A stretch of DNA of 64,000 nt from an uncultured Chloroflexia bacterium (GTDB lineage: Bacteria > Chloroflexota > Limnocylindria > Limnocylindrales > CSP1-4). This document shows, piece after piece, positions 9,028-47,303 of this stretch. Numbering within the stretch: position 1 is the first letter of the stretch; each line of letters opens with the position of its first letter. A program made the translations under genes and the position numbers. Under the pieces are notes generated by a model. The model had not been told where the DNA came from and made no database searches. It saw nothing but the letters and a program-made list of their open reading frames with translations. The stretch is from assembly GCA_963801445.1 (NCBI GenBank), contig CAWDEW010000013.1, positions 117,866 through 181,865 of the forward strand, given 5' to 3'.

Positions 9028-9265
9028 GGCGACCTCGGGCTGATCGCGCCGGGAGGTTCGAGGCGACCAACGGTATCGCCTGCGCCCGCGGTGTCAACAG
9101 GCGGCCCGCCATCCGGCGGCTTGCGAACGGCAGCCTCGCAACCGCCGGTCCCACGCCCGGGCGGGGGGGCCACTTGCGCCCCCGTCGTACACTCCCATAC
9201 CGGTCGAGCGGGTGCGTGCCACGGGGACGCGCGCGGTGGCCGGAGCACGAGGCGTGCGAACGACG

Positions 9266-10204: not shown

Positions 10205-10256
10205 CCGGACCTCGGGCGCGCGAGACGCCGCGGCGCTGCGGCCGCATCATGGGGCC

Positions 10257-10988: not shown

Positions 10989-13877
10989 ATGCCGCTGGAC
11001 CGGTACCGCACACGGCGTGACTTCACGCGGACACCCGAGCCGGCGCCGGGGACCGTGGGGTCGTCCCCCGGACCGGGCGCCCCGGATCCGACCGCTCCAG
11101 GGGGCTGCGGTCGCTTCGTCGTGCACATGCACCGGGCCCGTCGCCTGCACTGGGACCTGCGCCTGGAGATCGACGGAGTCCTGGCCTCGTGGGCCATCCC
11201 GAAGGGCCCCACCCTGGACCCGGAGGAACGGCGCTTCGCGGCACGCACCGAGGACCACCCGATCGAGTACCTCGACTTCGAGGGCGTCATCCCGGCGGGC
11301 GAGTACGGGGCCGGCGACTCGATCTGCTGGGATTGGGGCACCTTCGAGCCGGAGCTCTCCTGGGATCCCGGGCAAGCGGTGCGCGACGGGGAGCTGAAGA
11401 TGCGCCTGCGCGGCGAGAAGCTGCGCGGGAGGTTCACCCTCGTGCGCACGGCCGGACGCGGCGGGGACGGAAGGGCGACGGGCGACGGGCGATCGCGCCG
11501 CTCACGGACGGACGCGGGCGGAGCGGAGGACGCGGGATCCGGCGAGGGCTGGCTGCTGATCGCCAAGCGCGACCCGGACTCGGTGGCCGGCTGGGACGCC
11601 GGCGACCACCCGGCGTCCGTGCGATCCGGCCTGACCAGCGCCGAGGTCGCCGCCGGCATGTCGCCGCGGTTCGTGCGCCCGGCCCCGGCGCCGCTGCCCT
11701 CGCTGGATGCCCCGGGCAGCCTGCGGGGCGTCCAGCCGACCACCCTGGCCCCGATGCTCGCGACGCCCGGCACGGCCCCGTTCGACGACGAGTCGTGGCT
11801 CTTCGAGCCCAAGTGGGACGGCTATCGCGCGCTCGCGATCGTGGCCGGGGGCAAGGTCCGCCTCGTGACCCGCAACGGCAACGATGCCGGTCGCTACTTC
11901 CCGGAGCTGCTCGGCCCGCCGGCCTGGCTGATGGCGCCCGACGCGATCGTGGATGGCGAGGTCGTGGCGTTCGACGAGGCGGGCCGCCCCGACTTCTCGC
12001 TCCTGCAGGCCCGGGTGGGCGGCGGATTCGGGCGCAGCGATCCGGGGCCCAGGCCGGAGGCCCGCGCGGCTGGCCAGGCGGCGCCGCTCCTGTTCATGGC
12101 CTTCGACCTGCCCTGGTGCGCCGGCCGATCGCTCGCGGGCGTGGCCCTCGAGGAGCGCAAGGCGATCCTGCGCCTGGTCCTGCGGGAGCATCCGCGCGTC
12201 CGCTACGGCGGGCACGTGGAGCGGGACGGCGTGGCGTTCTTCCGGGCGGCCGCCGAGCGCGGGCTGGAAGGCGCGATGGCGAAGCACCGGGCAAGCCGCT
12301 ACGAGCCGGGCCGCCGGTCTCCGGCCTGGCTCAAGCTGAAGGTCCGCCCCACCCAGGAGCTGGTCGTGGCGGGCCACGTCCCCGGGCAGGGCTCGCACCG
12401 CGACCTCGGGGCCCTCCTGGTGGGCCTGTTCGATGGTGGCACCCTGCGCTCCGTCGGCCGTGTCGGGAGCGGGATCGATGGGCCGATGCGAGCCCGGCTC
12501 CGGCGTGACCTGGATGCGCTCGCCCGCCCGACCATGTCGTTCGCGGCCCCAACCGCCGACCTGGCGGAGCTGGCCCGCACGCCGGAGGTCACCTGGGTCG
12601 ACCCGGTGCTGGTGATCCGCGCCGAGATCGGAGGCTGGACCCTGGACGGCAACATCCGCCAGGCCTCGTTCGTGGAGCTCGCCCGCGACGTGGACCCGGC
12701 CGCGGTCGAGCGCCAGGATGCCGTGGGTCCGGCAGCCGCCCAACGGGCCCTCGCGAAGTCCGGCCTCGGCTCGGGTCCCACCCGGGCCCCGGCAGTGCCC
12801 GGCCTGGCCTCGCGCCGAGGTGCGTCGCGCGAGTCGGTCGCGCCGGCCTCGGACCCGACTGCGCCGGCGGCGGTCGCGACGACGCTCCCACCTGCCCCGG
12901 TCGTGGCGGCGCCGGCCGTCGTCCTGACGGCCTCGGCCGCGGAGCTCGCGGCCCTCGAGGCGCTCCCGGCAGGCGGCGGGACCTGGAACCTTGCCGGGCG
13001 CGAGATTCGCCTCACGAACCTGGGCCGGGTCCTCGCGCCGGGCTCGGCGCCGGACGACCCACCGATCACGAAACGGGAGCTCATCCGATACCTGGTGGAG
13101 GCCGCGCCGCTCCTCCTCCCGCACCTTTCCGGCCGGGCCCTCAACCTGGCCCGCTACCCGGAGGGGATCGCCGGCGAATTGTTCTGGCAGAAGGACGTGC
13201 CGAAGGGGACGCCCGACTGGGTCGCCCGGTGGCGGGAGCCCGACCCGCCGGACCGCCGGGCGCACTCGTACGTGCTCGCGGACGAGGTCGCGGCGCTCGG
13301 CTGGCTCGGCAACCAGGCCGCCGTGGAGATCCACCCCTGGACGTCCCGGATCGAGGCGCCCGCCGAACCGCGCTGGGCCCTGATCGACATCGATCCGGGG
13401 ACGGCCACGACCTGGGACGAGGTGCTCGTGCTGGCCCGACTCTTCAGGCGCGCCCTGGAGCACCTGGGCGTCACCGGCGTCCCGAAGACGAGCGGCAAGC
13501 GGGGCCTCCAGGTCTTCATCCCGATCGGCCCCGGCTCGACGTTCGAGGCAACCCGGGGCTGGATCGAATTGCTCTCGCGGGCGGTCGGTGGAGCCGTCCC
13601 GGACCTCGTGAGCTGGGAGTGGGCGAAGGAGCGGCGGGGCGGCCGGGCGCGCCTCGACTTCACCCAGAACTGGCGGAACCGGACCCTGGTCGCCGCCTAC
13701 TCGCCGCGCCCGGCGCCCGGGCTGCCGGTCTCGGCGCCGATCACCTGGGCCGAGCTGGACGATCCGGAGCTGCGTCCCGACCGCTGGACGATCCGGACGA
13801 TCCTGGCCCGCGTCGGGGCCCGCGGCGACCTCTTTGCCGCCGCGCTCGGCCCGGACCAGGCCCTCCCGCCGCTCTGA
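10989..13877 (+). CDS. ligD: Multifunctional NHEJ DNA ligase LigD (phosphoesterase, ATP-dependent ligase, polymerase/primase domains)
   Basis: N-terminal phosphoesterase (RRDFTRTPEP, HMHRARRLHWDLRLE). Ligase motif I FEPKWDGYRA with motifs III, IV and V. C-terminal polymerase domain (LDFTQNW). Confidence 0.9.
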   Translation: MPLDRYRTRRDFTRTPEPAPGTVGSSPGPGAPDPTAPGGCGRFVVHMHRARRLHWDLRLEIDGVLASWAIPKGPTLDPEERRFAARTEDHPIEYLDFEGVIPAGEYGAGDSICWDWGTFEPELSWDPGQAVRDGELKMRLRGEKLRGRFTLVRTAGRGGDGRATGDGRSRRSRTDAGGAEDAGSGEGWLLIAKRDPDSVAGWDAGDHPASVRSGLTSAEVAAGMSPRFVRPAPAPLPSLDAPGSLRGVQPTTLAPMLATPGTAPFDDESWLFEPKWDGYRALAIVAGGKVRLVTRNGNDAGRYFPELLGPPAWLMAPDAIVDGEVVAFDEAGRPDFSLLQARVGGGFGRSDPGPRPEARAAGQAAPLLFMAFDLPWCAGRSLAGVALEERKAILRLVLREHPRVRYGGHVERDGVAFFRAAAERGLEGAMAKHRASRYEPGRRSPAWLKLKVRPTQELVVAGHVPGQGSHRDLGALLVGLFDGGTLRSVGRVGSGIDGPMRARLRRDLDALARPTMSFAAPTADLAELARTPEVTWVDPVLVIRAEIGGWTLDGNIRQASFVELARDVDPAAVERQDAVGPAAAQRALAKSGLGSGPTRAPAVPGLASRRGASRESVAPASDPTAPAAVATTLPPAPVVAAPAVVLTASAAELAALEALPAGGGTWNLAGREIRLTNLGRVLAPGSAPDDPPITKRELIRYLVEAAPLLLPHLSGRALNLARYPEGIAGELFWQKDVPKGTPDWVARWREPDPPDRRAHSYVLADEVAALGWLGNQAAVEIHPWTSRIEAPAEPRWALIDIDPGTATTWDEVLVLARLFRRALEHLGVTGVPKTSGKRGLQVFIPIGPGSTFEATRGWIELLSRAVGGAVPDLVSWEWAKERRGGRARLDFTQNWRNRTLVAAYSPRPAPGLPVSAPITWAELDDPELRPDRWTIRTILARVGARGDLFAAALGPDQALPPL

Positions 13878-19186: not shown

Positions 19187-20034
19187 TGCCGCACACTCCC
19201 GTCGCCGCCCGCCCGCGCGTCGGCGTCGTCAAGTTCGCCTCGTGTGACGGCTGCCAGCTCACCCTGCTCGACCTCGAGGACGAGCTGCTCTCGATCGTCG
19301 AGCACTTCGAGATCGTGGACTTCCCGGAGGCGACCTCGGCCCGCTCCGCGGGCCCGTACGACGTCCTCTTCGTCGAAGGGTCCATCAGCGAGCCGGCCCA
19401 TCTCGAACGGATCGCCGAGCTTCGCCGGCGCACCCGCTTCCTCGTGACGATCGGCGCCTGCGCGACCGCCGGCGGCATCCAGGCGCTCCGCAACTGGGGC
19501 GACCACGATGCGTTCCGGAGCAGCGTGTACGCCCAGCCCGAGCAGATCGAGTCGCTGGCCCGCTCGACGCCGATCGCGGAGCACGTCGCGGTTGACGCGG
19601 AGCTGCGCGGCTGCCCGATCGACCCGGGCCAGCTCGTCGAGCTGCTCACCGCCCTCACCACCGGCCGCCGCCCGCAGCTCCGCGACGAGGCCGTGTGCAT
19701 GGAGTGCAAGCGGCGCGGCGTCGTGTGCGTGATGGTCGGCAAGGGGATCCCCTGCCTCGGCCAGGTGACCCAGACGGGCTGTGGCGCGATCTGCCCGCGC
19801 TATGGTCGCGGCTGCTACGGGTGCTTCGGCCCCCGCGAGCAGGCCAACGCCGCGGGCCTGGCCCGGCACCTCCAGATGGCCGGCGACCGGCCACGTGACG
19901 AGGTCGGGCGGCTCTTCGCCGGGTTCACGGCCTACGCGGAGCCGTTCCGGAGCATGGTCACCGAGCTCGGCGGCGCCCGGTCCGGGCGGCCCGAGACCGC
20001 GGCCGAGCCGGGCCCGCAGGGAGGCAAGGCATGA
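19186..20034 (+). CDS. Group 3b [NiFe] hydrogenase small (delta) subunit
   Basis: VVKFASCDGCQL...FVEGS...GACATAGG small-subunit motifs and a distal cluster (CMECKRRGVVCV...CLGQVTQTGCGAICP). TGATG overlap with the upstream gene. Confidence 0.85.
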   Translation: MPHTPVAARPRVGVVKFASCDGCQLTLLDLEDELLSIVEHFEIVDFPEATSARSAGPYDVLFVEGSISEPAHLERIAELRRRTRFLVTIGACATAGGIQALRNWGDHDAFRSSVYAQPEQIESLARSTPIAEHVAVDAELRGCPIDPGQLVELLTALTTGRRPQLRDEAVCMECKRRGVVCVMVGKGIPCLGQVTQTGCGAICPRYGRGCYGCFGPREQANAAGLARHLQMAGDRPRDEVGRLFAGFTAYAEPFRSMVTELGGARSGRPETAAEPGPQGGKA

Positions 20035-21353
20035 GCCACGGGACCGCGCACCACGAGGCGGACGAGCGGCTCTACGAGGTCGGAGAGCTGACCCGGGTGG
20101 AGGGCGAAGGATCGCTCCGCCTGCGGGTCCGCGACGGCGAGGTCATCGAGGCCCGCCTCGGGATCTTCGAGACCCCGCGCTACTTCGAGGCCCTCGTCGT
20201 CGGACGCACACCCGACGAGGCGATCGACATCGTCGCCCGCATCTGCGGGATCTGTCCGGTCGCCTACCAGATGAGCGCGGTCCACGGGTTCGAGGACCTC
20301 TTCGGCGTCCGGATCGACCCGTCGGTGCGCGCGCTCCGGCGACTCTTCTATTGCGGCGAGTGGATCGAGAGCCACGCCCTGCACATCTACTTCCTGCACG
20401 CGCCGGACTTCCTGGGCTATGAGAGCGCGATCGCGATGGCGGCCGACCACCGGCCCGCCGTCGAGGCGGCCCTGCGGATGAAGAAGGTCGGCAACCAGGT
20501 CGTCCGCGTCCTGGGCGGACGCCCGATCCACCCGGTCTCCGTGCGGGTCGGCGGCTGGTCCCACGTCCCGCGCCGGGCGGAGCTCGAGGCGCTGGTCCCG
20601 GACCTCGAGGCCGGCCTGGCGATCGCCCGCGAGACGATGAGCTTCGTGACCGGCCTGACGATGCCCGTCTTCGAGCGCGAGCCGCGCCTGGTCAGCCTCC
20701 GCCACGCCGCCGAGTATCCCTTCAACGACGGGCGGATCGTGAGCAGCGACGGCCTGGACCTGGCGCCCGGCGCGTGGCGCGATGCCTTCGAGGAGTTCCA
20801 GGTGGAGGGAAGCCACGCGCTCCATGCCCGCTCCCGGGACGGGAAGGGCGTCTATCTCGTGGGCCCCGCGGCCCGCGTGACGATGGCCGCGGAGCAGCTC
20901 CACCCGCTGGCCCGGGAGGCCCTGGCGGCGTCCGGCTACGCGCAGGCGATCCGCACGAACATCTACGCCTCGATCGTGGCCCGGGCGGTCGAGCTGGTCC
21001 ATGCCTTCGCCGAGGCGCTGGACCTGGTCGCCGCCTACCGGCCGCCCTCCGAGCCGCTCGTCGCCTGGAAGAGCCGCCCGGGCGTGGCCGCGTGGGCGAC
21101 GGAGGCGCCCCGCGGGCTGCTGTTCCACCGCTACGAGGTGGACGAGGCCGGTCGGATCAAGGCCGCCCAGATCGTGCCCCCGACCAGCCAGAACCAGGCC
21201 GCCATCGAACGTGACCTCGCGGTCGCGGCGAAGGGCGTCCTGGACCTGCCCCACGCCCAGGCGACCCACCGCCTGGAGCAGATGATCCGGAGCTACGACC
21301 CGTGCATCAGCTGCGCGACCCACTTCCTCGATCTCCGGGTCGAGCAAGCCTGA
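20031..21353 (+). CDS. Group 3b [NiFe] hydrogenase large (alpha) subunit
   Basis: RICGICPVAY N-terminal and DPCISCATH C-terminal Ni-Fe motifs. ATGA overlap with the small subunit. Confidence 0.9.
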   Translation: MSHGTAHHEADERLYEVGELTRVEGEGSLRLRVRDGEVIEARLGIFETPRYFEALVVGRTPDEAIDIVARICGICPVAYQMSAVHGFEDLFGVRIDPSVRALRRLFYCGEWIESHALHIYFLHAPDFLGYESAIAMAADHRPAVEAALRMKKVGNQVVRVLGGRPIHPVSVRVGGWSHVPRRAELEALVPDLEAGLAIARETMSFVTGLTMPVFEREPRLVSLRHAAEYPFNDGRIVSSDGLDLAPGAWRDAFEEFQVEGSHALHARSRDGKGVYLVGPAARVTMAAEQLHPLAREALAASGYAQAIRTNIYASIVARAVELVHAFAEALDLVAAYRPPSEPLVAWKSRPGVAAWATEAPRGLLFHRYEVDEAGRIKAAQIVPPTSQNQAAIERDLAVAAKGVLDLPHAQATHRLEQMIRSYDPCISCATHFLDLRVEQA

Positions 21354-32706: not shown

Positions 32707-32783
32707 GGTGGCCTTAGCTCAACTGGCAGAGCACTGGATTGTGGCTCCAGAGGTTACGGGTTCAAGCCCCGTAGGCCACCCCA
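32707..32783 (+). tRNA. tRNA-His (anticodon GTG) with genome-encoded G-1 and 3' CCA; coordinates ±2 nt
   Basis: Cloverleaf GTGGCCT/AGGCCAC acceptor stem, anticodon loop TTGTGGC, discriminator C, then CCA. A G precedes the acceptor stem. Confidence 0.85.
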
Positions 32784-37346: not shown

Positions 37347-38071
37347 CGTCGCCCGCCGGGTCCCGATCATTCGCCGCGAAGCTCGGCCTGCTTTCGGAGC
37401 TGACCCTGTTCGCCGGACTGTCCGAGGCGGACATGATGGCCATCGGCCATGCCACCACCATGACCCACTGCGTCCGCGGCCAGCAGATCCTCTCGCCCGA
37501 TGACCCGCCCGACAGGATCCACATCATCAAGGCGGGTCGCGTCCGGGTGTTCCGGATGAGCCCCGATGGCAAGCAGCTCACGCTCGACATCTTCGAGAAG
37601 GGGACGATCCTCGGCGACATGAGCCTGCTCGGCCAGGACCGGCTCGCGGAAGCGTACGCCGAGGCGATCGACGATGGCGTCATCTGCACGATCACCCCGG
37701 ACGAGCTCCGGCGCCTCATCGAGCGCTACCCGATCATCGGGGTCAACATCATCCGCCACCTCTCCCGACGGCTCCAGGCCGCCGAGCGCGAGATCGAGGC
37801 GATGGCCTACCAGCGGGTCGACCAGCGCCTCGCGCGACGGCTGCTCGACCTCGCCAGTCGCTTCGGCGTCCGGCACGAGCAGGGCACGAGGATCGAGGCC
37901 CGGCTCACCCAGCAGGAGCTGGCCGAGATGGTGGGGACCACGCGCGAGACCCTCGCCCACACACTCGCCGATTTCCGGCAGCGGGGCCTGCTCGACACCG
38001 CCCATCACCATGTCGTCATCCGCGATGCCGAGCGCCTCGCCGAGATCGCCGAAGGAGACGAGCTGGCCTGA
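37343..38071 (+). CDS. Crp/Fnr-family transcriptional regulator
   Basis: N-terminal cNMP-binding domain and C-terminal HTH (QQELAEMVGTTRETLAHTLADF). ATGA overlap with the upstream gene. Confidence 0.8.
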   Translation: MTSPAGSRSFAAKLGLLSELTLFAGLSEADMMAIGHATTMTHCVRGQQILSPDDPPDRIHIIKAGRVRVFRMSPDGKQLTLDIFEKGTILGDMSLLGQDRLAEAYAEAIDDGVICTITPDELRRLIERYPIIGVNIIRHLSRRLQAAEREIEAMAYQRVDQRLARRLLDLASRFGVRHEQGTRIEARLTQQELAEMVGTTRETLAHTLADFRQRGLLDTAHHHVVIRDAERLAEIAEGDELA

Positions 38072-38537
38072 ACGTTCGCCTTGGTCGATCGCTCGAAGGG
38101 CTCGAGCGGCCCGGCGCCTGGGGCACGCCTGCCGCCGATCCGCGTTCTGCCTCCTGACCCATCGGGCCGCCGCATCGTGGCCGGACTCGCCGACTCGTCC
38201 GACTCGTCCGGGATGCCGACCCGAGCTGGCTCCAGGCGGGACGAGGCGAACGCCGGTCTCGGCTCGGCCGCTGGGCGCGAGGGCCGTCCCGGCGCGTTCG
38301 CGGCCCTGCTCGATGCGACCGCTGAGGAGGCCGAGATTGGACACGACGAACGGGGTGAGGTAGTTCGTCGCGACCTTGAGCGCGATGCCGGCGCTCATGT
38401 GCCCGGCGAGGATCACGTCGCCCTGGTTTGCGAGCGTCAGGAACGTGCCCACCACGCCGGCGATCGCGAGCGTTCGTCGGAGATGTGCCGGGTGGAGCAC
38501 GTGCGAGATCGCCGACCGGAGCCGGCTTGGAAGCGCA

Positions 38538-39755
38538 CTACGCGGTCGGCTCATCGACCCTGGCCGTGGCCTTCAGGTGGCGGCCTTCCATCCAGCGGCG
38601 GACCGACAGCAGCGCCGCGATCCCCTCGCCGGCCGCGCTACCGACCTGCTTGGTCGAGCCCGCGCGCACGTCCCCGGCCGCGAAGACGCCATCCATCGTC
38701 GTGCGATACCGGTCATCGGTGATGACGAACCCGGCCTGGTCGAGATCGAGCGTCCCGTGCAGGAACGCCGTATTGGGGTCGAGACCGACGAAGACGAACG
38801 CAGCCGCCGCTTCCAGGCGCAGCTCGCGACCGTTCGCCCGCTCGACCGCGACGACCGCTCCGAGCCTGTCGTCGCGACGCTCGAACTCCCGGATATCCAT
38901 GCCGGTGTGGACGGTGATCCGCGGATGAGAGCGGATGCGATCCTGGACGAGCTCGCTTGCGCGCAGCTCGCCGCGGGTGAGGACCGTGACATGCTCGGCG
39001 AGCGTCGCGAGGAACAGCAATTCCTCGAGCGCCGAGTTGCCGCCGCCGACGACGACGATCTCCTTCGCGCCCCGGTAGAAGGGACCGTCGCAGGTGGCGC
39101 AGTAGTGGACCCCGAGGCCGATCAGGCCATCCTCGCCGGGAATGCCGAGCCGCCGGTAGCGCGAGCCCGTGGCGACGATCAGGGCACTCGCGCCGTACGT
39201 GTCGCCCGCGGCGGTCGTGACCACGACGCAGTCGGGCTCGCGGACGACCCGGGCGATGTCCGCGGCGGTGACCATCTCGACGCCGTAACGCGTGGCATGA
39301 GCGACGAGCCGTTCGGCCAGCTCGGCGCCGCCGATCCCCTCGGGGAAGCCCGGGTAGTTGTCGATCCGGTCCGTCGCCCCGGCCTGTCCGCCGAGCGCGC
39401 CGCGCTCGAGGACGAGTGCGTCCAGGCCCTCCCTGGCCGCGTAGATCGCGGCCGACAGGCCGGCCGGCCCGCCGCCCAGGACGAGGATGTCGTAGATGGA
39501 CCGGCTCGCCCGGACCTGGAGACCGAGCCTGGCCGCGAGCTCCGCATTCGAGGGTTCGAGCAGGTACGAACCGTCCGGGAACACGATCGTCGGGATCGTG
39601 CGGCCACCGCGTTGGAGCTCCTCCACGAAGCGCCGACCGGCCTTGTCCGCGTCGATGTCGACCCAGGCGAAGGGGATCCGCTGCTCGGTCAGGAATGCCC
39701 TCGAGCGGTGGCAGTCGGGGCACCACGGCGCCCCGTAGACGGTGATCGCGCCCAT
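38538..39755 (-). CDS. Glutaredoxin-like domain fused to thioredoxin reductase
   Basis: The N-terminus ITVYGAPWCPDCHRSRAFL carries a CPxC glutaredoxin/NrdH-like motif. The body is TrxB-like with GGGPAG FAD motifs and a CATCDG redox centre. Confidence 0.8.
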   Translation of the reverse strand: MGAITVYGAPWCPDCHRSRAFLTEQRIPFAWVDIDADKAGRRFVEELQRGGRTIPTIVFPDGSYLLEPSNAELAARLGLQVRASRSIYDILVLGGGPAGLSAAIYAAREGLDALVLERGALGGQAGATDRIDNYPGFPEGIGGAELAERLVAHATRYGVEMVTAADIARVVREPDCVVVTTAAGDTYGASALIVATGSRYRRLGIPGEDGLIGLGVHYCATCDGPFYRGAKEIVVVGGGNSALEELLFLATLAEHVTVLTRGELRASELVQDRIRSHPRITVHTGMDIREFERRDDRLGAVVAVERANGRELRLEAAAAFVFVGLDPNTAFLHGTLDLDQAGFVITDDRYRTTMDGVFAAGDVRAGSTKQVGSAAGEGIAALLSVRRWMEGRHLKATARVDEPTA

Positions 39756-40049
39756 TGGATCTCTCTCTCTTCTCTTGAGCGGCGCACGCAAGTGAGTCGC
39801 GACGAGTGCCCACCGACATCCTGGTGCCTGGACCTGGGTCGCGTCTGTGCGCCGGATCACAGCCGCCCGGCTCGACGGGCCTTCCTGCCCACCGGATCGT
39901 GACTCCCGGACCTTCGACATCACATGTGCGCGTGAGATGTTCAGCGCATGGAGATCTTCCGCCCGCTGGCGCTGCCCGGCGGCCGCCCGTCGGCGCAGGC
40001 GCGGGACCCGTCGCGGCGGCACGATCCATTCCCGCAGGCGGTAGGAACG

Positions 40050-40499
40050 ATGCCCGACTACCTGGAAGCCACGGTCGACAAGTTCATCTTCAGGGTCGCG
40101 ACCGACCGCCTGTACGGCGCCGAGGGGGTCTGGGCCCTGGCGGACGGCAATCGGATCCGCATCGGCGTGACCGACTTCCTGCAGCAGCGCAGCGGGGATG
40201 TCGCCTTCGCGGAGGTGAAGCCGGCAGGCACGGCGGTCGTGGTCGGCGGCGAAGTCGCCGCGATCGAGACCATCAAGGCCAATGTGGAGGTGCCGTCGCC
40301 CGTCGCCGGTGGGATCGCCGACGTGAACCCGGCGCTGAAGCTCTCCCCCGAGGTCATCAACCAGGATCCGTATGGCCAGGGGTGGCTCGCCGTCATCGAA
40401 GCCTCCGACTGGCCGAAGGATCGGGACGTGCTGCTCGACCCGCAGGCCTACCTCGAGCTGATGAAGGGCCAGGCCGAAGAGGAAGCGAAGAAGCCATGA
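40050..40499 (+). CDS. Glycine-cleavage H-protein-like lipoyl-carrier protein
   Basis: GcvH fold, with VAAIETIKANVEVPSPVAGGIADVN aligning to the IESVKAASD lipoyl-lysine motif and QDPYGQGWLAVIE at the C-terminus. GTAGGAA ribosome-binding site. Confidence 0.75.
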   Translation: MPDYLEATVDKFIFRVATDRLYGAEGVWALADGNRIRIGVTDFLQQRSGDVAFAEVKPAGTAVVVGGEVAAIETIKANVEVPSPVAGGIADVNPALKLSPEVINQDPYGQGWLAVIEASDWPKDRDVLLDPQAYLELMKGQAEEEAKKP

Positions 40500-40924
40500 G
40501 CGTCGAGGAGCGCCAGGTCCTGGTCGTGCCCTGCAGCGGCATCGGCAAGACGTACGGGACGGTCAGCCGCGAGGCCGCCTACGAGGTCACCGAAGACCGG
40601 CGACCGGGGGTCACGGGGCTCGTGGCCCTGTCCCTCCTCGTCCTCGGTGACCGGGACGCCCGTGCCGCAGTCCGAGCACGTCCGGCCGTGACGATCGACG
40701 GGTGCAAGCTCGCCTGCGCGGCCAGGATGGTGACGGAGAGCGGAGGGCATGTCGCCCAGGGCATCGCGGTGCTCGACGTGTACCGGCGCAACCGGGAGCT
40801 CAAGCCGCAGGGCATCGCCGAGCTGAACGAGGGCGGCCAACGGCTCGCCCATGCGGTGGCCGAGGAGGTCGCCATCATCGTCGACGAGCTGGTGGTCGTC
40901 CGGGAGACGCCCGACCATGCCTGA
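40496..40924 (+). CDS. DGC-domain protein (putative zinc-binding; PF08859-like)
   Basis: VVPCSGIGKTYG...TIDGCKLACAA gives the conserved DGC motif and Cys pattern. ATGA overlap with the GcvH-like gene. Confidence 0.7.
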   Translation: MSVEERQVLVVPCSGIGKTYGTVSREAAYEVTEDRRPGVTGLVALSLLVLGDRDARAAVRARPAVTIDGCKLACAARMVTESGGHVAQGIAVLDVYRRNRELKPQGIAELNEGGQRLAHAVAEEVAIIVDELVVVRETPDHA

Positions 40925-41687
40925 GCTGCCCCAGCGGAAGGTCGGGATCGTCGCCTGCTCCGGCGAAGAGCTGGCCGAAGGGACCGTGACCCGCCTGGCC
41001 GCCCTGCGAGTCCTCGAGCAGCGACGCCCCGGCCAGACGGTGACCATCTGCCTGCCGCTCTTCCTGGCCGGTGGAGAAGGCGACCGCGCGTTTGCCCGCT
41101 TCTATCCGACGATCGCGGTCGATGGGTGCGCCACGCGGTGCGCCGCGCGGGCGACGGAGCAGCTCTCGGGCAAGCCCGCCGCGAGCGTCGTGGTGAGCGA
41201 GCTGGTCCGCGAGGCGGGGCTGGCCCTACCGGAGGGCGCGCGGCGCCTCGACGAGCACGGCCGGCAGGCCGTCGAGCTGACCGCCGACCGGGTGGTACGC
41301 CTCGTCGATGAGCTGCTCGGCGGGCAATGGAGTCGACGGAGCGGATCCTTCGTCGAGCCCGACCCGGCGCTGCCGGCCGCGCAAGCGGCGCCCGCCGGGC
41401 AAGCCCCGCCGGCGGGCGATGCGATCCAGGCAGCCTGTGCCTGCGCGTCGGCCATCCCGTGCCAGGACCTGGACGTCGCCGGCCGAACGGTGTCGCTGGT
41501 GGCGTTGCCGCTGATCCTCGAGCAGCTCCACGCCGCGGGCAGGGTGCCCGGGCCCGAGGTGACGCACGAGCTGCTCGCGATCGTCAGGATCTACAACGAC
41601 ATGCCGGCCGGGACCGACGAGGAGTACGGGGCAGCCCTGGCGCGCGAGTACGCCGCCTTCTGCGCCCAGGAGCGGGCCCGGACATGA
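40917..41687 (+). CDS. DGC-domain protein, second copy, with a C-terminal extension
   Basis: VACSGEELAEGTV...IAVDGCATRCAA. Overlaps the upstream DGC gene by 8 nt and the downstream OsmC-like gene by 4 nt. Confidence 0.65.
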   Translation: MPELPQRKVGIVACSGEELAEGTVTRLAALRVLEQRRPGQTVTICLPLFLAGGEGDRAFARFYPTIAVDGCATRCAARATEQLSGKPAASVVVSELVREAGLALPEGARRLDEHGRQAVELTADRVVRLVDELLGGQWSRRSGSFVEPDPALPAAQAAPAGQAPPAGDAIQAACACASAIPCQDLDVAGRTVSLVALPLILEQLHAAGRVPGPEVTHELLAIVRIYNDMPAGTDEEYGAALAREYAAFCAQERART

Positions 41688-42136
41688 GCCGCACCGCGAC
41701 GTATCACACGACGGTCACGTGGACGGGCGAGCACCGGGGGCAGATCGCGATGGGCAACGGCCCGCAGATGGCCTTCTCGGCCCCGCCGGACGCGCAGGGA
41801 CATCCCGGCGTGCTGACCCCCGAGGACGCCTTCGTCGCAGCGGCGAACACCTGCGTGATGATGATGTTCATCTGGGCGGCCGAGCGCTTCAAGCTCGACC
41901 TGGAGTCGTACGACTGTCGCGCCGAGGGAACCAAGCTCATCGAGCTCGACCGGACGGAGACCTTCACCCACCTGCGGCTGTGGCCGCGGATCCGCATCCG
42001 CGCGGGACTCGAGCGACCGGCCCTGGTCGAGGCTCGAGCACGCCGGGCCCTGCGATCGGCCCAGAAGTACAGCCTGGTGGCCAACTCGGTGAAGTCCGAG
42101 ATCGTCGTCGAGCCGACGCTCGAGATCGTTCCCTGA
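41684..42136 (+). CDS. OsmC/Ohr-family (peroxiredoxin-like) protein
   Basis: OsmC fold with the conserved first Cys in AAANTCVMMMF. The second canonical Cys was not found. Confidence 0.75.
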   Translation: MSRTATYHTTVTWTGEHRGQIAMGNGPQMAFSAPPDAQGHPGVLTPEDAFVAAANTCVMMMFIWAAERFKLDLESYDCRAEGTKLIELDRTETFTHLRLWPRIRIRAGLERPALVEARARRALRSAQKYSLVANSVKSEIVVEPTLEIVP

Positions 42137-42164
42137 TCAACGAACACGCTCCAGGGAGGCCCAG

Positions 42165-42491
42165 ATGCAGACGCAGCTGCCAGTGCTCGACCTTCGAATG
42201 AACCTCGCGGCCCCGGACGTCCACGATGCCGCCTCAGCGGCGGCGATCCTCGCCGATCCGATCCGGGCGAGCGTCATGCGCATGCTCCGCGACGGTCCCG
42301 TCTGCGTGTGCGAGATGGCGGCTGCGCTCGGCTCGCGCGAGAACAACGTCAGCAACCACCTCGCGAAGCTCCGCGACGCGGGCCTCGTGCGGGCCGCGCG
42401 ATACGAGGCCGACACCCGACGGGTCTACTACGAGCGCGACGAGGCCGCCTGCCGGGTTGCGCTCCAGGGGCTCGGGGAGATCCTCGGATGA
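42165..42491 (+). CDS. ArsR/SmtB-family transcriptional regulator
   Basis: LADPIRASVMRMLRDGPVCVCEMAAALGSRENNVSNHLAKLRDAGLV matches the ArsR HTH with a Cys pair. Confidence 0.8.
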   Translation: MQTQLPVLDLRMNLAAPDVHDAASAAAILADPIRASVMRMLRDGPVCVCEMAAALGSRENNVSNHLAKLRDAGLVRAARYEADTRRVYYERDEAACRVALQGLGEILG

Positions 42492-42557
42492 CAGGGCTCG
42501 CGCTGCGGCGGGCAGATCGCCACCACTCCACGTCCAGCTGAGCGAAAGGAGCTCACG

Positions 42558-42794
42558 GTGAAGACGATCGAGGTCCTCGGACCTGGCTGCGCCAACTGCA
42601 TCAACCTCGAGAAGAACGCTCGCGAGGCCGTCGCCATGGCCGGCGTCGAGGCCCAGGTGGTGCACGTCACCGATCCGATCGAGATCAGGGCCCACGGGAT
42701 CCTGAGCACGCCCGGGCTCGTCATCGACGGCCAGGTCGTCAGCGCAGGCCGGATCCCGTCGGCCGGCGACATCGCAGCCTGGCTCAGCGAGTAG
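42558..42794 (+). CDS. Small thioredoxin-fold redox-active protein (redox-active disulfide protein 2-like, CxxC)
   Basis: 78 aa with GPGCANC near the N-terminus. This family is often found beside ArsR regulators. Confidence 0.7.
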   Translation: MKTIEVLGPGCANCINLEKNAREAVAMAGVEAQVVHVTDPIEIRAHGILSTPGLVIDGQVVSAGRIPSAGDIAAWLSE

Positions 42795-42837
42795 GAGCGC
42801 CCGGCGGAGGAGGGCGGCTCGGAAGCGACTGCCGCCG

Positions 42838-43734
42838 TCACGCGTGGCTCCGCTCTTCGAGCCGCTGGCGATCGACCGTCTCGAGCTGGAAGGTCGAGTG
42901 CTCGATGTCGAAGTCGTCGGACAGGCAGGAGCACAGCGCGTCGAGCGTCGCCGCGGCGTCGGCCACCTCGGCAAGGGTGACGTGGGCGGACAGCACGTTC
43001 ATCCCGGACGTGATCGTCCAGGCGTGGAGGTCGTGGCAGTCGACGACGCCGGGGGCGTCAAGGATGTGGGCACGCACGTGATCCATGTCGATCCCCCTGG
43101 GGGTCGCTTCGAGGAGCACGTCGGTCGCATCGCGGAGCAGGGCGAAGGTGCGGGGCAGGATGAGCAGGCCGATCAGCGCCGAGGCCACGGCGTCCGCGGT
43201 CGTCCAGCCCGCCAGGGCGATCACGAGCGCAGCGACGATCACTGCGGCCGACCCGGCGAGGTCGCCCATGACCTCGAGATAGGCCCCCCGCATGTTCAGG
43301 CTCTCGCGCTGGGCGTCGCGCAGGAGGAACAGCGACGCGGCGTTGGCGGCGAGGCCGACGAGGGCCACCGCGAGCATCAACCCGGACGCGATCTCGGGCG
43401 GCTCCGACAGTCGTCGCCAGGCCCCGTACAGGATGAACGCCGCAAGCCCGAAGAGGAGGAAGGCGTTCGTCACCGCCGCGAGGATCTCCACGCGGAGGTA
43501 GCCAAAGGTGCGCCCGTTCGTCGGGCTCCGCCCGGCGAACCAGATCGCCACGAGGGCCATCCCGACACCGGCCACGTCGGTGAGCACGTGCCCGGCGTCG
43601 GCGAGCAGCGCGAGGCTGTTCGCCGCAATCCCGCCGACGACTTCGACGACAAGGATCACGAGGGAGAGGGCCAGGACGGCGATGAGCCGACCCCGGTGAG
43701 CCGCGGCGGCCGAGCCGTGCGCGTGGGCCATCAC
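42838..43734 (-). CDS. czcD: Cation-diffusion-facilitator metal efflux transporter (CzcD/ZitB-like)
   Basis: Six TM helices with His/Asp sites (HVLTD...DLAGS) and a C-terminal cytoplasmic domain. Overlaps the upstream ArsR/SmtB gene. Confidence 0.85.
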   Translation of the reverse strand: MMAHAHGSAAAAHRGRLIAVLALSLVILVVEVVGGIAANSLALLADAGHVLTDVAGVGMALVAIWFAGRSPTNGRTFGYLRVEILAAVTNAFLLFGLAAFILYGAWRRLSEPPEIASGLMLAVALVGLAANAASLFLLRDAQRESLNMRGAYLEVMGDLAGSAAVIVAALVIALAGWTTADAVASALIGLLILPRTFALLRDATDVLLEATPRGIDMDHVRAHILDAPGVVDCHDLHAWTITSGMNVLSAHVTLAEVADAAATLDALCSCLSDDFDIEHSTFQLETVDRQRLEERSHA

Positions 43735-44117
43735 CCGACCTCGGAGACATGCGTCGCTGCGCCCAGGACAAGATCGCGGAGGTGGTCGTCGACCAGCCGG
43801 TAGTAGGCGATTCGACCGGCCTTGCGCCGATCGACCGCGCCGCGCTCGCGCAAGAAGCGGAGCTGGTGCGACAGGGCGGACACGCTCATCCCCAGCACGA
43901 GTGCGATGTCACAGACGCACAGCTCCTGCTCGGTGATCGCCAGGAGGTGGACGATCCTCGCCCGCGAGGGATCGGCGAGGGTCGCGAACAGCTCGCCGAC
44001 GGCTCGGGCCCCCTCGCTCCCGAGAGATCGTCCGAGGAGCGGCCGGATCGCCTCGGGGTGGAGACAGTCGACGGAGCAGGTGTCGCCGTCGATCTCGGAG
44101 GCAAATACTTGAGCCAC
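43731..44117 (-). CDS. ArsR/SmtB-family metalloregulator (CzrA-like)
   Basis: ELCVCDIALVLGMSVSALSHQLRFLRERG. Co-oriented with and overlapping the CDF gene. Confidence 0.8.
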   Translation of the reverse strand: MAQVFASEIDGDTCSVDCLHPEAIRPLLGRSLGSEGARAVGELFATLADPSRARIVHLLAITEQELCVCDIALVLGMSVSALSHQLRFLRERGAVDRRKAGRIAYYRLVDDHLRDLVLGAATHVSEVG

Positions 44118-44484
44118 GGTTCAAGTGTACGTCCGCGACACCGCGGGCGGCGCGGCCACGCGCTCGGCTCGTCCTTGCCATGGCGTACCCAAGACGGAAA
44201 GGGCAATCCGGGCCTGTCACGCTCGCGCATGTAGGCTGAAGGGCCGCCGAGGTGGCTGCCGACGACCCCTCGGGTCGATGTCCTGAGCGCTCCAGCGATC
44301 AGCTTCGTCGGGGAAGACGAGGGGCCATGAGTCGCCAACCTCGCGATCGACCGGTTCAGCACAGGAACCGGCGCCGGCCGTTCTCCGTAGAGACGGTCAT
44401 GAGAGCGCTCGTCACCTGCCTGGCGACGGTCGTCAGCGGGCCCGTGATCGACACGCCCCTCCACCGGGCGCCGTCCAGGCCACG

Positions 44485-45843
44485 ATGACCGAGCCCGCGG
44501 GCTTTCGCGCGAGGCTGGACGCCGAGGGGCGTGGCCGCCGCCGCGCCAGGGCGCTCGCCGCCGTGCTGGTCGTCGCGTTCCTCGGCCTCGCCGTCGCCAA
44601 GCCATGGGGCGCCTCGGTCACACCCGCACCCGGGCCCGCAGTCGGGCCGACCCAGGGCGCCGTTCCGCCCACTGCGGCTCCGCCGGCCGTGACCCCAGCT
44701 GAGCTGCTCCCCTCCGCGTTCGTGACGCCCGAGCCTCCGCCCCCGATGGCCGCCTGGGCCAGCATCCGCTGGACCCAGCTTGCGCCGGACGACCCGCTGG
44801 CCCGCGTCAGGTCGGTGACGCGCTGGCGGGGCGGCTTCGTCGCGCTGGGCCTGGAGGCCTCGGGAGCGACGCCGATCTGGACGTCGGCGGACGGGGCGCA
44901 CTGGCAGGCGCTGCCCTTCAACACTGCCGGGACGTTCTGGCCGGGCCTGCGGGTCCTCCAGGTGGTCGAGGTGCCCAGGGGCCTCGTGGCCGTCACGGAA
45001 CGCCTGGCCGACAACTGTGGTGGCGAGCCCTGCTTCGGGCCGTTCACGCCGCTCGTCACCATGTGGACGTCGCCCGACGCACGGACATGGTCGCCCCAAC
45101 CGTTCCCTCCCCTCGGGCCGCCCGAGGCGCCAGGCGCTGCGCCGCTCATCGCGGCCGGCCGGGCGGGATTGCTCGTCGTGTCGAGCGGAGCGCCGGCCCA
45201 CGCGGCGACGTCACCCGACGGCGTCCACTGGACCGTCCTTCCCGACGGCATCATCCGGAAGGACTTCTGGGTGGTCGCGCTCGCGAGCACGGCGCTGGGT
45301 TACGTGCTGGGCGGCGCGGTCGAGCCGGACACCACCAATGGCGACGCGGCGACCCTCTGGTCGGCGGACGGGACGGCCTGGGCGGCATCCCCGGCCCTGC
45401 CGACGGCCGCTGGCTCAGGCGCCACGCTCGTGAGCACGGGCGAGCTGTCGGTCGTCACGTCGTTCGTCGCCGGCCGCGATGGGCTCATCGCGCTCGGCGA
45501 CTGGTCGTCGACGCCGAGCATCGCGGTCTGGTGGCAGTCATCGGATGGACGAACCTGGCAGGTCCTGACCGGATATCCACCCCTCGGGCCGACCACCTGC
45601 ACCGGGGAGGGCTGCGGCGGCCAGCCCAACGGCGCGCTCGTCGGGGATGGACGCCGGATGGTCGCCCTCCGGGGCGGCCGTGACGCCGGCGCCTGGACGT
45701 CCGTCGACGGGCGTGCCTGGAAGCGTCTCCCGGCCGCCGGGGACCTGCCCAGCGAGCAGGCCACGAATGCAGTCCTGCTGCCGGGCGGACTGCTCGTCTC
45801 CGATGGGACGACGACCTGGTTCGGCGAGGCCCTCGTGAGGTGA
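44485..45843 (+). CDS. Membrane-anchored BNR/Asp-box repeat (beta-propeller) protein, paralog 1
   Basis: N-terminal signal anchor. At least five SxDGxxW Asp-box motifs (WTSADGAHW, TSPDGVHW, WSADGTAW, WQSSDGRTW, WTSVDGRAW). Confidence 0.6.
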   Translation: MTEPAGFRARLDAEGRGRRRARALAAVLVVAFLGLAVAKPWGASVTPAPGPAVGPTQGAVPPTAAPPAVTPAELLPSAFVTPEPPPPMAAWASIRWTQLAPDDPLARVRSVTRWRGGFVALGLEASGATPIWTSADGAHWQALPFNTAGTFWPGLRVLQVVEVPRGLVAVTERLADNCGGEPCFGPFTPLVTMWTSPDARTWSPQPFPPLGPPEAPGAAPLIAAGRAGLLVVSSGAPAHAATSPDGVHWTVLPDGIIRKDFWVVALASTALGYVLGGAVEPDTTNGDAATLWSADGTAWAASPALPTAAGSGATLVSTGELSVVTSFVAGRDGLIALGDWSSTPSIAVWWQSSDGRTWQVLTGYPPLGPTTCTGEGCGGQPNGALVGDGRRMVALRGGRDAGAWTSVDGRAWKRLPAAGDLPSEQATNAVLLPGGLLVSDGTTTWFGEALVR

Positions 45844-45896: not shown

Positions 45897-47303
45897 ATGC
45901 CCGAGCCAACGTCCTTCCGCGGCAGGCTGGACGCCGACGGGCGCGGACGTCGACGCGTCACGGCGCTCGTCGCCCTGCTGGTCGTCGCGTTCGTGGGCAT
46001 CGCCATCGCGAAGCCGTGGGCCGCGGCTGCCCCGGTCCCGCTGGCTCTCGGGCCGTCCCTCACTGCGACCCCGAACGGGACTGCAGGCCCAGGCCCATCG
46101 CCGGCGGCCACGCCGTCCGCCCCGATCCTGCCGACAGCGACTCCTGGCAAGCCGCTCCCGGACGCGTTCACCACGCCCGTGCCTCCACCCGCGACCGCGC
46201 CGTGGACGAGCATCCGATGGCGCCGGCTTGCCCAGGATGACCCGCTGACGCTCGTCCGGTCGATGCTGCGCTGGCGGGGCGGGTTCATCGCGATCGGCGG
46301 GGACTCATTGGGAGCCGTGGCAACGCCCCCGGTCTGGACCTCGATGTGGACCTCGACCGATGGAGCGCACTGGGAGCCGCTGCCCGTGGGAACCAGCACG
46401 ACCTTCTGGCCGGGCCTGGGCGTTCTCGGCGTCGCCGAGGTGCCCGCGGGCCTCGTGGCGCTCACGGGCTTCGGTGCCCGGGGCGGCTGCGGCACGACGC
46501 CCCCCTGCCCTGCAACCGTCATCTCGTGGACATCCAGCGAGGGTCGAGCCTGGACGCCCCATGGCTTCTCTCCCCTCGGGCCGTCATCACCGACGGGTGC
46601 CGAGCCCCTGCTCGCGATCGGCCCGGCAGGGCTGCTCGTCGTGTCGGCCGGCTCGCCCGCCCACGCGGCCACGTCCGCCGACGGAGACGCCTGGCAGATC
46701 CTGCCGGACAGCACGATCCCGACGGACTTCCTGGTGGCCGACGCTCGGGGCACGGCCACCGGGTATGTGCTGGGTGGCGCGCGGATGTCGAGTGCCACGC
46801 ACGGGGACGCGGCCGTGCTGTGGTCGCCGACCGGGCGGGCCTGGACGGCGGCCGGAATCCTGCCCTCCCTGCCCAACCTGAACAGGGCGTCTCCACCCAG
46901 CACCCAGACGTCGACGGTCGACTCGTTCCTGATCGGCAGTGACGGGCTGATCGCGCTCGGCCGGTGGATCGCGACGCCGGGCGCCGCCATCTGGTGGCAT
47001 TCGCCCGACGGGCGAGATTGGCGAACGCTCGACGGGTACGTGCCCCTGGGGCCTGGGCCCGCGAACGAGATCGCCGGCGGGGGACCGTATGGAACCCTCG
47101 TGGGGGATGGCCACCGCATGGTCGCCCTGCGGGGTGGCCGCGACGCCGGTGCCTGGACCTCTCCCGACGGCCTCGCCTGGACTCGCCTGCCGGTGACCGG
47201 CGACCTGCCGGCAGAGCAGGCCACGGACGCGGTGCTCCTGCCGGGCGGCGTGCTCCTGACCGACGGGACGACGACGTGGTTCGGCGAGGCAGGAGTGAGC
47301 TGA
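45897..47303 (+). CDS. Membrane-anchored BNR/Asp-box repeat (beta-propeller) protein, paralog 2 (tandem duplicate)
   Basis: Collinear with paralog 1 at roughly 55-60% identity by eye, with the same Asp-box spacing and the C-terminal LLPGG(L/V)L(V/L)(S/T)DGTTTWFGEA motif. Confidence 0.6.
   Translation: MPEPTSFRGRLDADGRGRRRVTALVALLVVAFVGIAIAKPWAAAAPVPLALGPSLTATPNGTAGPGPSPAATPSAPILPTATPGKPLPDAFTTPVPPPATAPWTSIRWRRLAQDDPLTLVRSMLRWRGGFIAIGGDSLGAVATPPVWTSMWTSTDGAHWEPLPVGTSTTFWPGLGVLGVAEVPAGLVALTGFGARGGCGTTPPCPATVISWTSSEGRAWTPHGFSPLGPSSPTGAEPLLAIGPAGLLVVSAGSPAHAATSADGDAWQILPDSTIPTDFLVADARGTATGYVLGGARMSSATHGDAAVLWSPTGRAWTAAGILPSLPNLNRASPPSTQTSTVDSFLIGSDGLIALGRWIATPGAAIWWHSPDGRDWRTLDGYVPLGPGPANEIAGGGPYGTLVGDGHRMVALRGGRDAGAWTSPDGLAWTRLPVTGDLPAEQATDAVLLPGGVLLTDGTTTWFGEAGVS

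Follow-up and report, generated by a model that had tools for sequence, protein, structure and literature searches.

A GcvH-like, DGC and OsmC-like gene module in arsenic-type operons of Chloroflexota, a candidate lipoyl-dependent thiol system

Genes at the locus

The stretch of DNA analysed here, called the window below, comprises 64,000 nucleotides (64 kb) from an uncultured Chloroflexia bacterium (contig CAWDEW010000013.1) and has a GC content of ~70-76%. Between positions 40050 and 42794 it carries six genes that code, in this order, for a GcvH-like lipoyl-carrier protein, two proteins with a DGC domain (DGC1 and DGC2), an atypical protein of the OsmC fold, an ArsR-family repressor and a small ArsE-type thioredoxin-like protein. 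This six-gene operon is conserved in Anaerolineae-type Chloroflexota, and its first four genes are referred to as the module. An earlier note on this DNA, made from the sequence alone, had read the four genes as a peroxide-defence relay based on lipoyl groups and had considered the arrangement uncharacterised. The literature searches turned up neither an account of a GcvH/DGC/OsmC cluster nor one that connects it with ars operons. The features of the locus are the following.

38538 to 39755, minus strand: divergent fusion of a glutaredoxin/mycoredoxin-like domain and a thioredoxin reductase, 405 amino acids (aa) (Pfam Glutaredoxin and Pyr_redox_2)
39756 to 40049, no strand assigned: intergenic region of 294 bp, 5′ of the GcvH-like gene, presumed promoter/operator
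40050 to 40499, plus strand: GcvH-like lipoyl-carrier protein, 149 aa (Pfam GCV_H, 101.6 bits)
40496 to 40924, plus strand: DGC1, 142 aa (Pfam PF08859, 51.8 bits)
40917 to 41687, plus strand: DGC2, 256 aa (Pfam PF08859, 58.7 bits, residues 11-97)
41684 to 42136, plus strand: atypical OsmC-fold protein, 150 aa (Pfam OsmC, 46.8 bits)
42165 to 42491, plus strand: ArsR/SmtB-family repressor with a CVC motif (C47, C49) in the DNA-binding region (Pfam HTH_5, 50.2 bits; NCBIfam HTH_metalloreg, 67.5 bits vs a cut-off of 55)
42558 to 42794, plus strand: small thioredoxin-like protein of the MTH895/ArsE family, 78 aa, CxxC at C11/C14 (Thioredoxin_3, 88.6 bits; TIGR00412, 87 bits vs a cut-off of 62)

All Pfam matches of the module exceed their gathering scores (22.2 for GCV_H, PF01597; 27 for DGC, PF08859; 27.5 for OsmC, PF02566), and the domain assignments of the earlier note (GCV_H, DGC twice, OsmC) are thereby borne out. 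Its description of four genes joined by ATGA-type overlaps at 40050-42136 is right in its coordinates and for two of the three junctions: the GcvH-like and DGC1 genes, and likewise the DGC2 and OsmC-like genes, share an ATGA of 4 nt (40496-40499 and 41684-41687, respectively), whereas the DGC1 and DGC2 genes overlap by 8 nt (40917-40924, ATGCCTGA), which is not strictly of the ATGA type. The genes for the ArsR-family and thioredoxin-like proteins follow on the same strand, 3′ of the OsmC-like gene, after gaps of 28 and 66 nt, so that all six genes are co-directional with no gap above 66 nt.

The 294-bp region in front of the GcvH-like gene is presumed, from its position, to hold the promoter and operator of the six-gene unit; it contains weak palindromes only, none of them usable. 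A promoter/terminator scan found no sigma-70-like or terminator-like site in 39600-43000, and an Rfam scan of 38000-44500 gave no match, glycine riboswitch included. The genes that flank the unit in the window are unrelated to arsenic: upstream lie NmrA-like, HxlR, YjeF_N and Crp/Fnr genes, and downstream a convergent pair of genes for a CDF cation efflux protein and a second ArsR/SmtB regulator.

Proteins encoded by the module

The GcvH-like protein aligns over its full length to GcvH of Thermus thermophilus (PDB 1onl; 97.8 bits), and lysine K76 of its ETIK motif, which is invariant in its homologues (79/79), falls on the lipoyl-lysine of the ESVK motif of 1onl. Both NCBIfam cut-offs for GcvH are nevertheless missed (NF002270, 103.9 bits vs 117; TIGR00527, 86.7 vs 115.85), and gcvT or gcvP (GCV_T, GDC-P) was found neither in the Pfam-annotated contexts of three related loci (L001, L082 and L083) nor among the recurrent neighbour families. 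Since both the curated cut-offs and the gcvTP context fail, the protein is a lipoyl carrier of the GCV_H fold that we do not file as a plain GcvH. The family forms a tight clade with ~60-85% identity whose members are nearly all 149 aa long, and the start at 40050 is for this reason preferred to the one at 39948; the database copy of the window protein is annotated 34 residues too long (183 aa, start 39948), and looking up either version by exact sequence led to no contig. A conserved N-terminal extension of 15 aa, MPDYLEATVDKF (window 40050-40094), with an invariant K11, precedes the part that aligns to solved GcvH structures.

The OsmC-like protein has the OsmC fold in its AlphaFold2 (AF2) model (predicted local distance difference test score, pLDDT, 84). 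In a Foldseek search, Ta0195 (2onf) came first, with template-modelling (TM) scores of 0.79/0.85, followed by VCA0330 and Escherichia coli OsmC (TM 0.72-0.75) and, farther away, by Ohr; the two nearest solved structures, Ta0195 and VCA0330, are thus uncharacterised “third group” proteins. In the alignment, C57, on helix 1, coincides with the peroxidatic Cys (Cp) of Xylella Ohr (1zb8) and E47 with the catalytic Glu; both are invariant (72/72). The family has exactly two invariant Cys, the other being C78 (72/72), which lies 21 residues past C57 on the strand after the Cys57 helix. Also invariant are His17, Arg79, Arg118 and Arg121. A search of 1.84 billion cluster representatives delimited a tight clade of OsmC-like proteins, outside which identity falls abruptly from ~66% to 45% or less. 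Among the nearest outgroups, some have Cp and the canonical resolving Cys (Cr), others Cp, C78 and Cr together; the module protein has thus retained C78 and lost Cr specifically. The fold is present and the Cp/Cr rule fails, for which reason the protein is not filed as a plain member of the OsmC family either.

DGC1 contains three invariant Cys, C13, C70 and C74 (DGCxxxC motif; 71-74 of 74 sequences), and the DGC domain of DGC2 contains four, C14, C45, C71 and C75 (69-70 of 70 sequences), so that the four-Cys pattern of the DGC family is complete in DGC2 only. The two proteins are paralogous, as the earlier note had held: DGC1 matches the N-terminal half of DGC2 (its first 135 residues) with an hhalign probability of 99.8% over 131 columns. 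In DGC2, a near-invariant C174-x-C176 opens a C-terminal domain of ~85 aa for which Pfam gave no match. The AF2 model of DGC2 is confident for this C-terminal domain, a beta-hairpin and three helices, and poor for the Cys-bearing DGC core. Predicted secondary structure places C14 after a strand (9-12), C45 at the end of a second strand (42-45) and C75 directly before a helix, which hints, at low confidence, at a ligand or metal site at the edge of a sheet. Foldseek returned no match to the DGC2 model in the PDB, and the sequence search no solved homologue. A relationship of the DGC domain to ArsD or to thioredoxin-like proteins was considered and ruled out (hhalign probabilities of 5.5% or less).

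Genes for the C-terminal domain of DGC2 also occur on their own, with a vicinal CC in place of CxC, in four loci (L055 9265-9576, L056 ~12372-12659, L046 ~7015-7239 and L078 ~12435-12719), and in L055 and L056 they come after the thioredoxin-like gene. Module genes are frameshifted in several metagenome-assembled genomes (MAGs) built from long reads (P0378, P0408, L001 10472-10877), which gives rise to split DGC1 genes and to false DGC2-OsmC and OsmC-thioredoxin “fusions” in databases; the DGC2-OsmC protein P0378 (411 aa) is such a frameshifted assembly product and no genuine fusion.

The operon across Chloroflexota

A species-level scan with one genome per species yielded 312 relatives of the GcvH-like protein, and the best 80 of these 312 loci were taken for the analysis of gene context. 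Almost all are from Chloroflexota MAGs (Anaerolineae, Thermoflexales, Aggregatilineales and “uncultured Chloroflexia”), and counts out of 81 include the window itself. Gene order was followed by tblastn with the window proteins and by a second tblastn run with a stricter identity filter; neighbour families were obtained by clustering the adjoining open reading frames and scanning cluster representatives against NCBIfam and Pfam. Where flanks matter, counts refer to 49 loci with adequate flanks or to 44 loci with long flanks.

The order GcvH-like, DGC1, DGC2, OsmC-like is found in nearly all of the 80 loci, and all four genes are complete in 65 of them; DGC1 accompanies the GcvH-like gene in 77/81 loci, DGC2 in 75/81 and the OsmC-like gene in 74/81. 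Even the overlaps are kept, with -4 nt at the first junction in 55/73 cases, -8 nt at the second in 58/69 and -4 nt at the third in 56/67. Such an arrangement is far beyond chance, and its conserved translational coupling argues for co-expression of the four proteins in fixed proportions, possibly as a complex. The features on which the earlier note had staked its proposal are thus present: the lipoyl-lysine motif is retained, a Cys stands at the peroxidatic position, the four-gene context recurs across genomes in the same order, and no gcvTHP context was encountered.

Two further genes belong to this conserved setting. An ArsR-family gene and a gene for an MTH895/ArsE-type thioredoxin-like protein each occur on the same strand in 47 of the 49 loci with adequate flanks, and the CxxC of the latter is conserved in 68/68 sequences. 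Among ArsR proteins of the window type, C47 is present in 29/29 and C49 in 28/29, and the ArsR proteins encoded upstream of the module in other loci have a CxC in 42/46, mostly as CVCH. The CVC motif belongs to the As(III)/Sb(III) site in classical ArsR, and CadC-type Cd/Pb sensors have it too; the ArsR protein of the window (42165-42491) probably serves the operon as its metalloid sensor. The earlier note had pointed to both genes downstream of the module, but had missed that regulation and neighbourhood are predominantly of the arsenic type.

A gene for a true dihydrolipoyl dehydrogenase (Lpd) lies directly upstream of the module, on the same strand, in 19/81 loci, or 18 of the 69 with enough upstream sequence; its product scores 494 bits vs an equivalog cut-off of 408.8 and stays below the cut-off of the MerA model. 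In one such locus (L019) the order is ArsR-Lpd-GcvHL-DGC-DGC-OsmC-Trx3. Genes of arsenic metabolism are frequent neighbours, namely Acr3 in 22-25 loci (a representative reaches 462 bits vs 282.8), an ArsC-like protein of the low-molecular-weight protein tyrosine phosphatase type in 22-23 and, called by sequence inspection, ArsD in 11, ArsA in 9 and an ArsM-like methyltransferase in 4. At least one of Acr3, ArsC, ArsA, ArsD and the ArsM-like protein is encoded in 43/81 loci and in 26 of the 44 with long flanks; the remaining 18 of these 44, the window among them, have no dedicated arsenic pump or reductase near the module. Two Pfam-annotated contigs that were reached independently from the OsmC side (L082/L083) read HTH_5-GCV_H-DGC-DGC-OsmC-Thioredoxin_3-SBF(Acr3), and L047 reads ArsR-Trx3-ArsC-Acr3-GcvHL-DGC-DGC-OsmC.

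Other neighbours recur as well. A TauE/SafE membrane protein is encoded in 21-25 loci, and in the closest relatives its gene stands between the OsmC-like and ArsR genes; genes for AhpD-like CxxC proteins lie nearby in 15 loci. Examples of these neighbours are L039 12891-13646 and L037 12057-12419, and the window lacks both kinds of gene. A radical-SAM/SPASM protein of ~418 aa with an AbrB/MazE-like N-terminal domain is encoded in 20 loci (e.g., L053 8669-9925, L001 8495-9745); its best NCBIfam match, well under the cut-off, is a model for a maturase of tungsten-cofactor oxidoreductases, and one of the Cys proteins may be its target for maturation or modification. A protein of 177 aa with a C-terminal PF04060 “putative Fe-S cluster” domain, which is similar to the N-termini of the ACS gamma subunit and RnfB, is encoded in 16-22 loci, sometimes in two copies (L079 15055-15588, L055 9807-10334). 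A Pfam census of 137 further neighbours revealed no recurrent glycine-cleavage, lipoate-ligase/synthase, SirTM/macrodomain or sHdr genes.

The divergent glutaredoxin-thioredoxin reductase fusion, which the earlier note had included in a thiol-redox island, drops out as a partner of the module: it is a feature of the window only, with no orthologue beside the module in the 80 related loci, where the matches of 26-30% identity are Lpd. Its score in NCBIfam TRX_reduct is 301.5 bits, under the cut-off of 343.

A candidate lipoyl relay and its rivals

Because the module lies almost always in ArsR-controlled operons of the arsenic type, it looks like an arsenic-switched lipoic-acid thiol system and not like a general peroxide defence. 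The account to which we lean, tentatively and short of calling it probable, is a metalloid-induced relay in which electrons would pass from NADH to Lpd, from there to the lipoylated GcvH-like protein, on to DGC1/DGC2 and finally to an atypical thiol peroxidase of the OsmC type. In this relay the GcvH-like protein would be lipoylated on K76; in place of carrying the aminomethyl group in glycine cleavage, it would offer its dithiol on a swinging arm. It would be held in the reduced state by NADH via Lpd, whose gene lies directly upstream in about a quarter of the related operons, a position that fits a redox-cycling lipoyl carrier; in the genome of the window, Lpd would necessarily be supplied from elsewhere. 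Electrons would then reach the co-translated thiol proteins, with the DGC paralogues and their DGCxxxC motifs as adaptors or Cys-rich intermediates in the place that AhpD takes elsewhere, and the OsmC-fold protein would act at the end of the chain as a thiol-dependent hydroperoxide reductase. With no canonical resolving Cys in this protein, it would fall to Cys78, or to the lipoyl dithiol itself, to resolve oxidised Cys57. A thiophilic metalloid would release ArsR and allow expression of the module, which would limit the thiol and peroxide damage that accompanies exposure to arsenic.

The closest known system in architecture is the Lpd-DlaT-AhpD-AhpC chain of Mycobacterium tuberculosis, reportedly described by Bryk et al. 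in 2002 as an NADH-dependent peroxidase. This chain likewise joins a flavoprotein, a lipoyl protein, a small adaptor with a Cys motif and a terminal thiol peroxidase, and DGC1/DGC2 would replace AhpD. It differs in that its carrier is an E2 subunit, its adaptor has the AhpD fold and its peroxidase is a peroxiredoxin, none of them homologous to the DGC or OsmC proteins of the module, and in that it is not known to be under metalloid regulation.

In function, the closest known system is the hydrogenosomal peroxide-detoxifying relay of Trichomonas vaginalis, in which the L and H proteins convey electrons from lipoate to OsmC (Nyvltova et al. 2016, cited in PMC7946386 and PMC5384416). According to these accounts it combines Lpd, a lipoylated H protein outside glycine cleavage and an OsmC protein off the canonical Arg/Glu signature, as the relay proposed here would; unlike the module, the relay they describe is eukaryotic, its genes are unclustered, and it has neither a DGC protein nor an ArsR/ars context. 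The module for its part has an adjacent Lpd gene in only 19/81 loci, none of it in the window, and its OsmC-like protein has a Ser at the resolving-Cys position together with the new Cys78. This precedent and the upstream Lpd genes make the lipoyl relay of the earlier note plausible, but the precedent had been overlooked when the arrangement was called uncharacterised.

Lipoyl groups are the biological reductants of Ohr/OsmC proteins (PMC5384416), and Ohr has been crystallised with dihydrolipoamide (PDB 6ebg, 6ebd). Like the characterised Ohr/OsmC peroxidases (PMC5384416, PMC5962072), the module protein has the OsmC fold, a helix-1 Cys in the peroxidatic position and a conserved Glu, and dihydrolipoyl groups are the known reductant of these enzymes; it differs from them in that the Cp/Cr pair, in which Cr lies ~60 residues past Cp (PMC5384416), is broken by Ser130, and in that the Ohr-type Arg is a Trp in most members.

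In genomic logic, the nearest relative is the ArsR5 operon of P. mercurii ND132, which includes ArsP, ArsE and a DGC gene and is differentially expressed with arsenic (bioRxiv 10.1101/2022.10.17.512643). It likewise combines genes for ArsR, an MTH895/ArsE-family thioredoxin-like protein and a DGC protein (PF08859), but no GcvH-like or OsmC-like gene is listed, there is a single DGC gene, and the exporter is ArsP. Two other systems show how GcvH-like proteins have been recruited elsewhere. The GcvH-L/SirTM/macrodomain/LplA2 operon of Staphylococcus and Streptococcus (PMC12440151) also has a second, dedicated H-like carrier in a stress operon outside glycine cleavage, but its partners, regulation and phylum differ, and SirTM, macrodomain and LplA2 genes were not seen near the module, either in the recurrent clusters or in the 137-neighbour census. 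In the sHdr pathway of sulfur oxidation, the GcvH-like protein LbpA serves as a thiol carrier of a non-canonical pathway (PMC6067878, PMC10332631); unlike there, neither sHdr nor sLpl(AB)/LipS1/S2 genes are among the recurrent neighbours of the module.

The metalloid-induced relay is supported by the conserved gene order and overlaps, K76, the OsmC fold with its invariant Cys57 and Glu47, the DGCxxxC pairs, the AhpD-like neighbours, the upstream Lpd genes and the CVC motif of ArsR, as well as by the lack of gcvT/gcvP, lipoate-ligase, SirTM/macrodomain and sHdr neighbours and of a glycine riboswitch. A considerable body of observations weighs against it. Judged by its residues, the OsmC-like protein appears to lack two defining features of characterised Ohr/OsmC peroxidases: the canonical resolving-Cys position, aligned to a Cys in 2onf and 2d7v (VCA0330), is Ser130 in 72/72 sequences, and position 18, equivalent to Arg19 of Ohr, is Trp in 65/72 and Arg in 4, the window included. 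The OsmC-type Arg sits elsewhere in the sequence than the Ohr Arg (PMC5384416), and one of the invariant R79, R118 and R121 could replace the catalytic Arg. The assignment to the Ohr/OsmC family made in the earlier note thus stands for the fold, Cys57 and Glu47, and fails for the resolving Cys, with the Ohr-type Arg replaced in most members. DGC proteins have no place in a simple relay from L and H proteins to OsmC, although no genes of the module are coupled more tightly than theirs, and the DGC fold has neither a confident model nor a structural relative. Lpd, Acr3 and ArsC are all absent from the 64-kb window. No peroxide-type regulator, OhrR and PerR included, recurs among the neighbours, control being always of the ArsR type, and arsenic efflux or reductase genes are present in about half of the loci. 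In L073 (CP070785.1), a GcvH-like gene (10001-10408) directly follows ArsC-Acr3 without DGC or OsmC genes, and in L068 another (10001-10423), again without them, follows a radical-SAM/SPASM gene; these lone genes suggest a lipoyl carrier with an ars-linked role of its own. Finally, dihydrolipoyl groups are the classical target of As(III), so that a lipoyl relay induced under arsenite is not obviously protective.

Peroxide defence, the label chosen in the earlier note, is therefore one of two comparably likely readings. In the other, which we regard as a serious if doubtful possibility, the module has arsenicals as its direct target. Recycled by Lpd, the lipoyl arm might give two electrons for the reduction of arsenate or pentavalent organoarsenicals on the OsmC-fold or DGC proteins, with Cys57/Cys78 as the site on the OsmC fold and the invariant His17, Arg79, Arg118 and Arg121 as an oxyanion site; alternatively, the dihydrolipoyl arm and the Cys3/Cys4/CxC sites of DGC1/DGC2 might bind As(III) or methylarsenite, MAs(III), and pass it to Acr3 or TauE, sparing essential dithiols. 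The near-universal company of a CVC-bearing ArsR and an ArsE-type thioredoxin-like protein (47/49 loci) speaks for such a role, as do the ars genes of 43/81 loci, often in one compact co-directional operon with the module (L082/L083, L047), and the exporter, Acr3 or TauE, that adjoins it in 26 of the 44 long loci. To these may be added the DGC-domain gene of the arsenic-responsive ArsR5-ArsP-ArsE operon of P. mercurii (bioRxiv 10.1101/2022.10.17.512643), the remodelled active site of the OsmC-like protein with its new invariant Cys78 next to Arg79, the vicinal CxC/CC of the C-terminal domain of DGC2, which resembles known As(III) sites, the lone GcvH-like gene behind ArsC-Acr3 in L073 and, for the reductase version, the dedicated Lpd, which implies sustained redox turnover. 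Arsenic binding or reduction is, however, known for no OsmC-fold or DGC protein, and the DGC domain has no profile similarity to ArsD or to the thioredoxin-like family. Moreover, a second arsenate reductase would be redundant in the 22 loci that also have a conventional ArsC, 18 of the 44 long loci, the window included, have no dedicated arsenic pump or reductase, and the OsmC-like protein still has the Cys-Glu pair that peroxidases typically show. In its boldest form, this would be the first lipoic-acid-dependent arsenic system, in which the DGC proteins and an OsmC fold turned to a new purpose (Cys57/Cys78 and an Arg/His-rich pocket) would receive electrons or As(III) from the Lpd-recycled arm of the H-like protein and together form a new reductase of arsenate or organoarsenicals(V) or an As(III) chain to Acr3/TauE; we rate this as unlikely, though not negligible.

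Two further explanations carry far less weight. In a sulfur or persulfide module, the GcvH-like protein would be an LbpA-like carrier of sulfane sulfur, ArsR a persulfide or sulfite sensor of the BigR/SqrR type, TauE a sulfite exporter and the Cys-rich proteins a sulfur relay. The LbpA precedent of a GcvH-like protein in sulfur oxidation (PMC6067878, PMC10332631), the TauE/SafE genes that adjoin the module in 21-25 loci, the weak NCBIfam matches of ArsR to BigR and TsoR and the thiol-rich nature of every component would fit this picture, but the score for BigR is 26.9 bits vs a cut-off of 155, the recurrent hard markers are arsenic genes, and neither sHdr, DsrE/TusA, rhodanese, SQR and persulfide dioxygenase genes nor the lipoylation genes sLpl(AB) or LipS1/S2 recur among the neighbours, which makes it improbable. 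Least credible of all, and in our view very improbable, is that the first gene codes for an ordinary H protein of glycine cleavage, or for a lipoyl-relay donor for E2 subunits, that stands beside stress genes by chance without forming a functional unit with them. It is true that the match to GCV_H is strong and that the protein reaches 97.8 bits against T. thermophilus GcvH; yet both NCBIfam GcvH cut-offs are missed, most loci retain the overlaps with the DGC genes, the 149-aa proteins form a tight clade of ~60-85% identity, gcvT/gcvP were seen neither in the three Pfam-annotated contexts nor in the neighbour census, and the locus has no glycine riboswitch.

Neighbouring features and wider meaning

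The CDF cation efflux gene downstream of the operon (ZitB/CzcD-like; 42838-43734, minus strand) overlaps by 4 nt the gene of the second ArsR/SmtB regulator (43731-44117, minus strand), whose C-terminus, DDHLRDLVLGAATHVSE, matches the DxHx10Hx2E pattern of the alpha-5 zinc site. This pair was considered as part of the module and set aside, being a separate convergent efflux unit of the zinc/cobalt type; CDF genes also occur near the module in L055 and L012. Two tandem paralogues of ~450-470 aa follow (44485-45843 and 45897-47303, both plus strand), with similar hydrophobic N-termini and repeated W/G-rich segments; a Pfam scan of the product of the first (44485-45843) gave no match. Elsewhere in the window, and unrelated to the module, lie Ku-like and LigD-like genes (9212-10204 and 10989-13877), by inspection a non-homologous end-joining pair, a gene for the large subunit of a NiFe-hydrogenase (20031-21353; Pfam) and a single tRNA-His gene (GTG; 32708-32783).

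A dedicated lipoyl carrier in arsenic-type operons across a bacterial class is unexpected, because lipoyl dithiols are the textbook target of arsenite. If the module is a protective redox relay, the logic of the L/H/OsmC and Lpd-DlaT-AhpD-AhpC systems would be extended to bacteria, with new adaptor proteins; if it acts on arsenicals directly, it would represent a new way to reduce or traffic them and would give the DGC domain (PF08859) its first function. In either case, the operon offers a testable context for the DGC domain and the “third group” of OsmC-like proteins, two families that have no biochemistry assigned to them, and it does so in a compact form, as four to six small soluble proteins that should be easily reconstituted.

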